DNA from: a virus | Strand: one strand, 5' to 3' | Virus record (IMG/VR): IMGVR_UViG_3300038825_000664 | Span: 1 to 43,920 of that record | Length of the DNA: 43,920 nt | Shown here: positions 6,528-6,958 of the stretch, in pieces | Position numbering within the stretch: position 1 is the first letter of the stretch | Layout: each line of letters begins with the position of its first letter | Program-made: the position numbers and the translations under genes | Notes under the pieces: model-generated | What the model saw: the letters and a program-made list of their open reading frames with translations, nothing else | Databases searched by the model: none | What the model was told of the DNA's origin: nothing

Positions 6528-6550
6528 TCAACATTCTCACCGTTCAATCC

Positions 6551-6926
6551 ATGACACAATGACGGTGACACATCGCAAAACATACTCAAGGATTACTTTG
6601 CAGGGTATACCCCACAATCACAATCTTACGGTTTTATACTTAAAAATGTGTCATTAATAATAAATAAGAGTAAAGAGTATAAGAAACAACAACTTAACCC
6701 ATGACAGTTTGATCACGATCCATGACACATTAAATGCTAAGTTGTTGTTTTCCTTGAACTTCCCAATGACACATTATCACTTTACTGTACCACAAAATAC
6801 CACGACATCCAGCACCATTGTAGCTGTGAGTCACCATTCTAAGCATCATTTCATCATCAACATTCTAAGCATCAACATTTCTAGCGACATGACACATTAA
6901 TGACACATCCACTTTCAATGTGTCAC
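6551..6926. repeat. Cluster of nine (A/G)TGACACAT boxes in the largest non-coding region
   Basis: Exact ATGACACAT occurs at 6722, 6766, 6889, 6900 and, inverted, at 6646. One-mismatch copies are at 6551, 6565 and, inverted, at 6918. A two-mismatch copy is at 6701. An AT-rich core spans roughly 6630-6700. Confidence 0.85.
6835..6874. repeat. 14-bp direct repeat cattctaagcatca, two copies
   Basis: Copies are at 6835-6848 and 6861-6874, 26 bp apart, inside the non-coding region. Confidence 0.85.
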
Positions 6927-6931
6927 GCAAT

Positions 6932-6952
6932 AAAAAACCACTCGAAAGTGGC
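6932..6952 (-). terminator. Rho-independent terminator closing the leftward early operon
   Basis: The minus-strand RNA reads GCCACU-UUCG-AGUGGU followed by UUUUUU. It starts 7 nt after the stop of the 116-aa gene. Confidence 0.6.
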
Positions 6953-6958
6953 TCTTGG

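Follow-up and report, generated by a model that had tools for sequence, protein, structure and literature searches.

A conserved array of GTCA-core boxes upstream of the terS operon of a podovirus genome, a candidate operator region for the early-to-late transcription switch

We examined the longest non-coding region of a podovirus genome, IMG/VR record IMGVR_UViG_3300038825_000664, whose 43,920 nt (positions 1 to 43,920 of the record) are referred to below as the window. The region separates a nucleotide-metabolism and primase operon from the operon that holds the terminase genes terS and terL, and is packed with short boxes of the type ATGACACAT. In the order of the minus strand, it comprises a transcription terminator, the boxes and a sigma70-type promoter, followed by an HNH-AP2-like gene, terS and terL. 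A preliminary description of this DNA had offered three roles for the region: a replication origin, a pac site or TerS-binding array, and a late-promoter control region. Late-promoter control is the best supported of the three, and the origin is the weakest. We tentatively read the region as an operator array that may control the switch from early to late transcription.

The region was initially delimited as 6528-6958 (430 bp). The gap is real: its 431 bp free of open reading frames (ORFs) form the largest non-coding stretch of the genome, the next largest being 225 bp. Its extent, however, has to be corrected to 6477-6958 (482 bp), because the TTG start listed at 6527 is probably wrong and is replaced by the ATG at 6476. 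This ATG is preceded by an AGGAGA ribosome-binding site, and the resulting gene length fits the homologues. Every gene flanking the gap is on the minus strand. The upstream operon ends with the stop codon of a 116-aa membrane-type ORF (6959), which is followed directly by a hairpin and a run of six U residues, an intrinsic terminator (Table 1). Relatives keep this terminator with compensatory stems: GCCGC/GCGGC in the related locus L116 and other stems in L012, L016, L019 and L077. At the opposite end lies the putative late promoter, recognized by its match to the consensus only; a matching promoter was read by eye in L007, L009 and L119. A copy of the third motif described below (GAGAATGTTGATTGATG) encloses its -35 element. 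The site at 6527-6499 is the only promoter-like one upstream of the late genes on the minus strand, and the preceding operon ends at the terminator; the late promoter must therefore lie in this region. The claim that the phage encodes no RNA polymerase, which had made late-promoter control of interest, agrees with Pfam scans of 38 ORFs, most large ones included, none of which has such a domain.

Boxes adjoin the late promoter, and one of them is shared with the early promoter. Three heptads make up the promoter-proximal block, which lies ∼46-70 bp upstream of the -10 and holds ACGGTGACACATCG (6562-6575). This is one of exactly two copies in the genome of a 14-nt pattern, ACGGTGACACANCG, the other being at 15264-15277. 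With one mismatch allowed, 0.06 matches to the pattern are expected, and none of 100 shuffled sequences reaches two. The second copy lies in a divergent region (15074-15298) with a strong promoter (TTGACA at 15229-15234, TATACT at 15253-15258), where it covers the transcription start. GTGAC is found at the same position downstream of the -10 in 15 of 26 early promoters, from the window and 25 relatives. The early promoter (15200-15260; L088-L111 among the relatives) also carries an inverted repeat, TGTCAA-N9-TTGACA, with the -35 as its right arm, in nearly all of the 25 relatives. This repeat, which is not the downstream GTGACACA box, probably serves as a second operator. Boxes are also found on a third promoter: in relatives that have a divergent 151-aa gene they overlap its sigma70 promoter, forming the -35 in L007 and standing just after the -10 in PS25B.1 and L014. 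The terminator, the promoter, the boxes adjoining it and the shared 14-nt pattern all support late-promoter control. The position of boxes against the late promoter, the operator shared with the early one, the boxes on the divergent promoter and the heptad spacing make a transcription-control array the explanation that we favour, with reserve.

The boxes are concentrated in the region far beyond expectation. All nine boxes that had been described are present: five exact copies of ATGACACAT and four with one or two mismatches. A tenth heptad, AATGACG, lies at 6557-6563 between boxes 6551 and 6565. The region makes up 1.1% of the genome, and binomial tests give P=1e-9 for ATGACACAT (five of six genome copies, the single outside copy being at 19617), P=2e-12 for TGACACAT (7 of the 10 copies in the 43.8-kb genome) and P=9e-11 for TGACACA (8 of 23). 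The genome-wide count at up to one mismatch (25) is not above that of shuffled sequences (30±5), so the signal is one of local clustering and not of overall excess. The other repeats noticed earlier are equally real. The tandem pair at 6889 and 6900 has the 11-bp spacing, and the 8-bp palindrome is an inverted pair (6901-6908/6918-6925); on the minus strand this distal block reads TGACACAT-N9-ATGTGTCATTAATGTGTCATGTCG. The 14-bp direct repeat is CATTCTAAGCATCA, found twice inside an 18-nt repeat (6831-6848 and 6857-6874) and forming part of a third motif, the core of which, RAATGKTGA, has four of its nine genome copies in the region (P=2e-6). This motif is also present in L077, L024, L015, L016, L135 and L143. 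The AT-rich block is narrowed to a pyrimidine-skewed tract of 36 bp (6655-6690) with 19% GC, compared with 42.6% in the genome.

Between the distal and promoter-proximal blocks, the boxes are interleaved with sequences resembling sites for the bending protein IHF. Two segments, 6750-6738 and 6696-6684, are the 13-nt arms of a perfect inverted repeat, each reading AAACAACAACTTA, and alternate with boxes 6774, 6730 and 6709. Box 6 and the inverted box at 6646-6654 form an inverted pair ∼55 bp apart around the second putative bend site. We take the IHF consensus to be WATCAANNNNTTR, which AATCAACAACTTA fits. Relatives have AATCAACAACTTA, an exact match, at the position of the first site, and the TAAGTTGTTGATT motif is its reverse complement. 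Matches to the IHF consensus are 9-fold denser in regions upstream of terS than in flanks of the same loci (29 genomes).

The arrangement is conserved. Using TerL, the early protein discussed below and a 20-nt box string as queries, we recovered ∼30 related loci from IMG/VR, the TARA/JGI metagenomes and GenBank. Chance matches occur, as two of six metagenome matches (L118 and L120) lie in eukaryotic-looking DNA, and exact-pattern scans of IMG/VR with two strings from the window gave no match. All related loci have a non-coding region of 400-700 bp upstream of the terS operon, dense in GTCA-core boxes. Some ∼25 relatives, from isolates, IMG/VR and TARA, share one architecture: GTCA-core heptads spaced by 7 or 11 bp and pointing either way, together with an inverted pair of boxes that encloses an IHF-like site and an AT-rich tract. 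In 12 relatives, adjacent boxes of the same orientation prefer spacings of 7 bp (n=15) and 11 bp (n=17), and those of opposite orientation prefer 21-23 bp (n=17). L012 has three box copies at 11-bp spacing, and L009 has three GCGTCAT copies at 7-bp spacing in the place of the promoter-proximal block. This triple heptad, immediately upstream of the late -35, is the most conserved box block. An alignment of five sequences (mean column identity 59%) is invariant in GTGAAACA and the terminator, with a compensatory stem in L116, and in the 24 nt of ATGTGTCATTAATGTGTCATGTCG that span the tandem pair; the promoter-proximal CGATGTGTCAYCGTCATGTGTCA is near-invariant. Its other conserved blocks are a box fused to TAAGTTGTTG and a central ATGACA..TTTTTA element. 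The latter, a box with a T run of the form ATGAC(A/G)C-TTTT(T), is the best-conserved feature of the region and the sole element that aligns in every relative. More distant relatives, with 54-61% identity in TerS, retain a box, an IHF-like site and an inverted box as a module, with other box sequences.

GTGAAACA lies in non-coding sequence in L077 and L019. A GTGAAACAT-type motif stands at either end of the region (6958-6972 and 6509-6523), and the same pairing is seen in L077, L115, L116 and L117.

From this arrangement we infer a regulatory scheme in which the region would serve as the control region of the only late operon of the phage, comprising the HNH-like, terS, terL, portal, capsid, tail and lysis genes. 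Transcription of the upstream operon would stop at 6932-6956, and host RNA polymerase would restart at 6527-6499. The ATGACACAT boxes would be 7-9-bp operators with a GTCA core, bound by a phage-encoded sequence-specific protein that may act cooperatively on tandem (7 or 11 bp) and inverted units. One or two IHF-type bends could fold the 430 bp and bring the distal boxes and the proximal triple heptad into one nucleoprotein complex, which would set the activity of the late promoter. By occupying the early start site at 15264-15277, the same protein would shut off the early promoter and complete the switch. The most likely reader would be the small ribbon-helix-helix (RHH)-like product of 15299-15526, the first early gene. 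This 75-aa protein is highly conserved across the family and has a strand-helix-helix pattern; JGI names one homologue CopG/RHH, and its AlphaFold2 model (pLDDT, the predicted local distance difference test score, of 76) has an extended N-terminus followed by two helices. Same-orientation spacings of 7 and 11 bp together with inverted boxes are the grammar of the RHH regulators omega, ParR and MetJ.

Several observations weigh against this scheme. The RHH fold of the 75-aa protein is weakly supported: the protein has no Pfam match, and its best fold match in the PDB by Foldseek, the RHH protein ArtA on DNA, is not significant (E=3.3). The array has 9-12 boxes over 430 bp, more than a single promoter usually needs, and each of the two IHF-like sites of the window has one mismatch at a core position. 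We compared the box variants ATGACAC, ATGACGC, TCCGTCAYGG, TTGACACT and AGGACAC with candidate readers. No protein tracks them among TerS, the RHH-like protein and the C-terminus of the primase, and co-variation tests on ∼14 genome pairs were negative or uninformative. The strand of the RHH-like protein does not follow the box variants, and L018 keeps ACGGTGACACAACG at its early promoter, yet its late boxes are TCCGTCAYGG. The arrays do change in concert between related phages (to GCGTCAT, TCCGTCAYGG or AGGACAC), which suggests a phage-specific reader. Neither the HNH-AP2-like protein nor the divergent 151-aa protein is an obligatory one, because clean ATGACAC arrays persist in relatives that lack both genes, for example L012, L015, L077 and L117.

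The proximity of terS raises the possibility of a pac site, at which an SF6/SPP1-type TerS ring would bind the phased boxes, IHF would bend the DNA and TerL would make the first headful cut nearby, with the late promoter merely co-located. The preliminary description had placed the region just upstream of terS. The terS operon does adjoin it, but terS itself is separated from it by an optional HNH-AP2-like gene, so that the statement lacks precision. In every relative the terS operon follows the region directly, irrespective of what is on the far side, and TerS belongs to the Terminase_2 family, with a helix-turn-helix N-terminus and nonameric relatives in the PDB. The 11-bp phasing fits such a ring, and the inverted box pair ∼55 bp apart around an IHF-like site mirrors the R3-I1-R2 arrangement of lambda cosB and P1 pac. 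The window was assembled as a circle. Phages Ab31 and YA3, of the epsilon15/AF group according to the published papers, lack fixed genome ends, which headful packaging would predict, and the Ab31 TerL is 50% identical to that of the window. The adjacency holds in all relatives examined, whereas the expected co-variation of the TerS DNA-binding domain with the boxes does not. L020 and L014 are identical in the TerS N-terminal domain but differ in their box sets; L009 and L016, with GCGTCAT boxes, share the DHGYKLL helix with L015, which has GTGTCAT; and box type does not separate the recognition-helix classes DHGY, DYGY and DTGY. Moreover, the extended box also occurs on the early promoter, 8.7 kb distant, and ends of IMG/VR contigs do not pile up in the region. 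We consider the pac reading somewhat unlikely, but it is the strongest competitor of late control. Late control and packaging are not mutually exclusive: one nucleoprotein complex could both fire the late promoter and mark the DNA for TerS, and if so, late transcription would be coupled to the initiation of headful packaging.

The identical first and last 99 bases of the window, by which it is taken as a circular assembly of ∼43.8 kb, do not represent a direct terminal repeat or fixed ends in the region: this overlap lies inside the structural operon and is an assembly artefact. The related records are likewise circular or arbitrarily opened assemblies; that of phage 1.021.A was opened between two boxes, without a terminal repeat.

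The combination of repeats with the AT-rich tract had also suggested an origin. The boxes would then be iterons for an initiator such as the 869-aa primase-helicase, the 36-bp tract would unwind and IHF would assist. Iteron-like repeats do adjoin a strand-skewed tract of 19% GC, and the module of inverted box, IHF-like site and AT tract is the best-conserved element. The phage encodes a primase-helicase of the DUF5906 type, and the primase-helicase of phage P4 binds iterons. However, ∼5.5 kb separate the region from the primase-helicase gene and ∼8.3 kb from the gene that opens the plus-strand early block with its replication genes. The AT tract directly adjoins an IHF-like core and can be read as its usual A/T flank. 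The primase C-terminus does not follow the box type: in this part L014 and PS25B.1 (TTGACAC boxes) resemble the window more closely than L012 (ATGACAC boxes) does. The closest sequence to a DnaA box, TTACCCACA, lies at the late transcription start and, by eye, is one base off the consensus. We regard an origin as distinctly unlikely.

A host regulator could dispense with a phage reader altogether: PhoB or another winged-helix protein of the OmpR family would bind TGTCAY heptads as Pho boxes. The Pho box consensus is CTGTCATAWAWCTGTCAY; its TGTCA core and 7+4+7 layout are matched by GTGTCAT-TAAT-GTGTCAT (6889-6908), a pair without variation in five sequences. The commonest same-orientation spacing is also 11 bp. 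Spacings of 7 bp and inverted orientations are nevertheless equally common, and the pair lies ∼385 bp upstream of the -10, not in place of the -35. No conserved -10 follows the pair in L115, L117 and L119, and whole arrays change in concert between related phages. This makes Pho boxes very improbable. Were they real, a lytic marine vibriophage would gate its late packaging operon on the phosphate status of its host.

Further candidates were rejected. For a small RNA or riboswitch, a search of 6300-7700 against Rfam (E<=1) gave only a spurious snoRNA match. A hidden coding sequence was rejected on account of indels that break the short ORFs of the gap in L116, L117 and L119. The boxes are not read as sigma70 promoters of their own, with TTGACAC or ATGACA as -35, since inspection found no conserved -10 at 16-18 bp in the window or in relatives. 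The central box lacks the invariant GG and GC of a sigma54 promoter. An attP-like intasome was dismissed, as the Pfam scans of 38 ORFs, most of the large ones among them, found no integrase. Dam/GATC control as in P1 pac was rejected because GATC is neither enriched nor part of the boxes.

Table 1. Positions of the features of the region and of related genes in the window (relatives where stated)
Feature	Position	Strand	Description
Exact ATGACACAT copies	6646 (inverted), 6722, 6766, 6889, 6900		
One-mismatch copies	6551, 6565, 6918 (inverted)		
Two-mismatch copy	6701		
GTGAAACATCTTAAC motif	6958..6972	-	just before terminator
Intrinsic terminator of upstream operon	6932..6956	-	CCACT/AGTGG stem, UUCG loop, U6 run
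Distal box block	6889..6926	-	inverted box 6918-6926, then tandem pair 6900-6908, 6889-6897, 11 bp apart
Third motif	6828..6882	-	four to five ∼13-nt tandem repeats (G)CTTAGAATGTTGATG, core RAATGKTGA
Box 4	6766..6774	-	ATGTGTCAT on minus strand
IHF-like site 1	6738..6750	-	TAAGTTGTTGTTT on plus strand, AAACAACAACTTA on minus; one mismatch to WATCAANNNNTTR
Boxes 5 and 6	6722-6730; 6701-6709 (CTGTCATGG)	-	box 6: left arm of central module
Central module	6646..6700	-	IHF-like site 2 (6684-6696), AT-rich tract, inverted box ATGACACAT (6646-6654), T5 run
Promoter-proximal block	6551..6575	-	three heptads at 7 bp, ATGACAC AATGACG GTGACAC on plus strand
Putative sigma70-type late promoter	6499..6527	-	TTGATG, 17 nt, TGgTATATT (extended -10); consensus match only
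ATGAACATCTTGAAC	6509-6523		near copy of GTGAAACATCTTAAC, in late promoter spacer
Second extended box ACGGTGACACAACG	15264..15277	+	starts 6 nt after early -10, over transcription start
First early gene	15299..15526	+	75-aa RHH-like protein, candidate box reader
Early block	15299-24089	+	replication genes
Second block	15073-6959	-	upstream operon, nucleotide-metabolism/primase
Late block	from 6476 via assembly junction to 24086	-	
First late gene	5973..6476	-	167-aa HNH-AP2-like protein; PHROG 99, HNH endonuclease, E=2e-12
terS	5530..5976	-	Terminase_2 family, SF6/SPP1-type; Pfam PF03592 E=6e-12
Shared tail, TerS and HNH-AP2-like protein	5530-5976; 5973-6476		DDVTFF (TerS); PEVSFL (HNH-AP2-like)
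Shared tail, DUF2800 nuclease and Dam methylase	15980-17311 and 18294-18809		DEPSFF (nuclease); QPVTFM (methylase)
Shared tail in relatives, 151-aa protein	L007:2353-2808		PEVSFI
Shared tail in relatives, 321-aa upstream enzyme	L117:493-1458		VDPSFM

The nearest isolates of the window are Vibrio phages 1.021.A, 1.185.O, PS25B.1 and MZH0603. Pfam and PHROG scans show a podovirus content, with a T7-type portal, gp13/gp14-like internal proteins and a 2504-aa polyvalent protein. Further matches are a DUF2800 nuclease, an Enc34-type SSB, a Dam-family methylase, a polymerase-like 691-aa protein, an SNF2 helicase, the DUF5906 primase-helicase (869 aa), ThyX, ribonucleotide reductase, MazG and Nmad5. 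The polyvalent protein (27766-35280) is of virion type and has LPD22, GNAT acetyltransferase and PBECR5 (barnase/EndoU-like nuclease) domains. Against small terminases in the PDB, TerS matches Pam5 (E=4e-9) and SF6 3zqp (E=0.18). The first late gene, which has no Pfam match, is a relative of HNH_3/AP2-type homing endonucleases and was probably domesticated as a DNA-binding protein, because its catalytic Asp-His (DH) motif is lost and replaced by IRTMNP. This gene is optional in the family: its slot holds two divergent versions (∼41% identical) in different relatives, and tblastn upstream of terS found no HNH-AP2-like gene in L008, L012, L015, L020, L077, MZH0603 and L117.

On the other side of the region, the 151-aa gene, not assigned to a family, takes the place of the 116-aa ORF in L007, L009, L014, PS25B.1 and 1.021.A, among others. 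A stretch upstream of the 116-aa ORF (7454-7582) is conserved with L007 (2126-2305) as the peptide MLIKSASLRLALSHAF. The genes flanking it differ between the window and L007, and the stretch may mark the recombination boundary of the swap between the 116-aa and 151-aa genes. In the 115-bp gap between terS and terL (5415-5529), the terL start codon lies inside a box-like GGTGACACATG (5413-5421), which is kept in at least seven relatives and may be merely ribosome-binding context. The second early ORF (15453-15980, 175 aa) has a run of ∼20 Ala-Pro dipeptides; the GenBank record of PS25B.1 was opened inside the corresponding CTCCTGCTG tandem repeat, splitting the second early gene across the record ends. 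Unrelated proteins carry the same C-terminal tail, [D/E/P]-x-[S/T]-F-[F/L/M] (Table 1), which in TerS is conserved across 21 relatives. The tail resembles a docking peptide, perhaps a motif of clamp-binding type, through which these proteins would contact a common partner.

T7-like marine podoviruses without their own RNA polymerase are abundant, and to our knowledge the timing of their late genes is uncharacterised. A literature search on the motif, VpV262-type promoters, epsilon15-type packaging and the Pam5 small terminase found nothing directly relevant. The region provides a concrete, conserved and experimentally tractable cis element, with boxes, a candidate reader, probable IHF sites and an operator shared by the early and late promoters. 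It can be used to study early-to-late switching and whether the same site doubles as a packaging signal, and annotators can recognise by it where the late operon of this phage family begins.

Iteron origins (lambda ori, pSC101, R6K gamma, P4 ori/crr) combine direct and inverted short repeats with an AT-rich tract and an IHF site; the region has such repeats and such a tract, with IHF-like sites. Unlike these origins, the region is neither within nor next to an initiator gene, has no DnaA-box consensus match by eye, and is bounded by a terminator and a structural-gene promoter. Lambda cosB (R3-I1-R2-R1), P1 pac and SPP1 pac resemble the region: they lie immediately upstream of the small terminase gene or overlap it, and have repeated short boxes in both orientations with an IHF site or an intrinsic bend between inverted boxes. 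Here, in contrast, variation in the boxes is not followed by the DNA-binding domain of TerS, and one extended box stands on the early promoter.

RHH arrays (omega of pSM19035, ParR/parC of R1, the met boxes of MetJ) are built of 7-11-bp units, head-to-tail and head-to-head, by or over promoters. Their units are contiguous, and they function in plasmid partition, copy control or metabolism, whereas the present boxes are grouped in four clusters that other motifs separate within 430 bp, and the assignment of the phage protein to the RHH family is weak. The scheme proposed here resembles the early/late switch of phi29 (sites 1-4 of p4, with p6, between promoters A2c/A2b and A3), likewise a lytic phage without its own RNA polymerase. 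In phi29 a small early protein acts through several sites over a few hundred bp, repressing early and activating late transcription via a bent complex. The box sequences and the protein family differ, bending is here assigned to a putative host IHF-type site, and the late and early promoters are 8.7 kb apart instead of back to back. No new class of mechanism is indicated: since its likeliest role is that of a switch that turns on the late genes, the region appears to be an element of a familiar type whose sequence is new.

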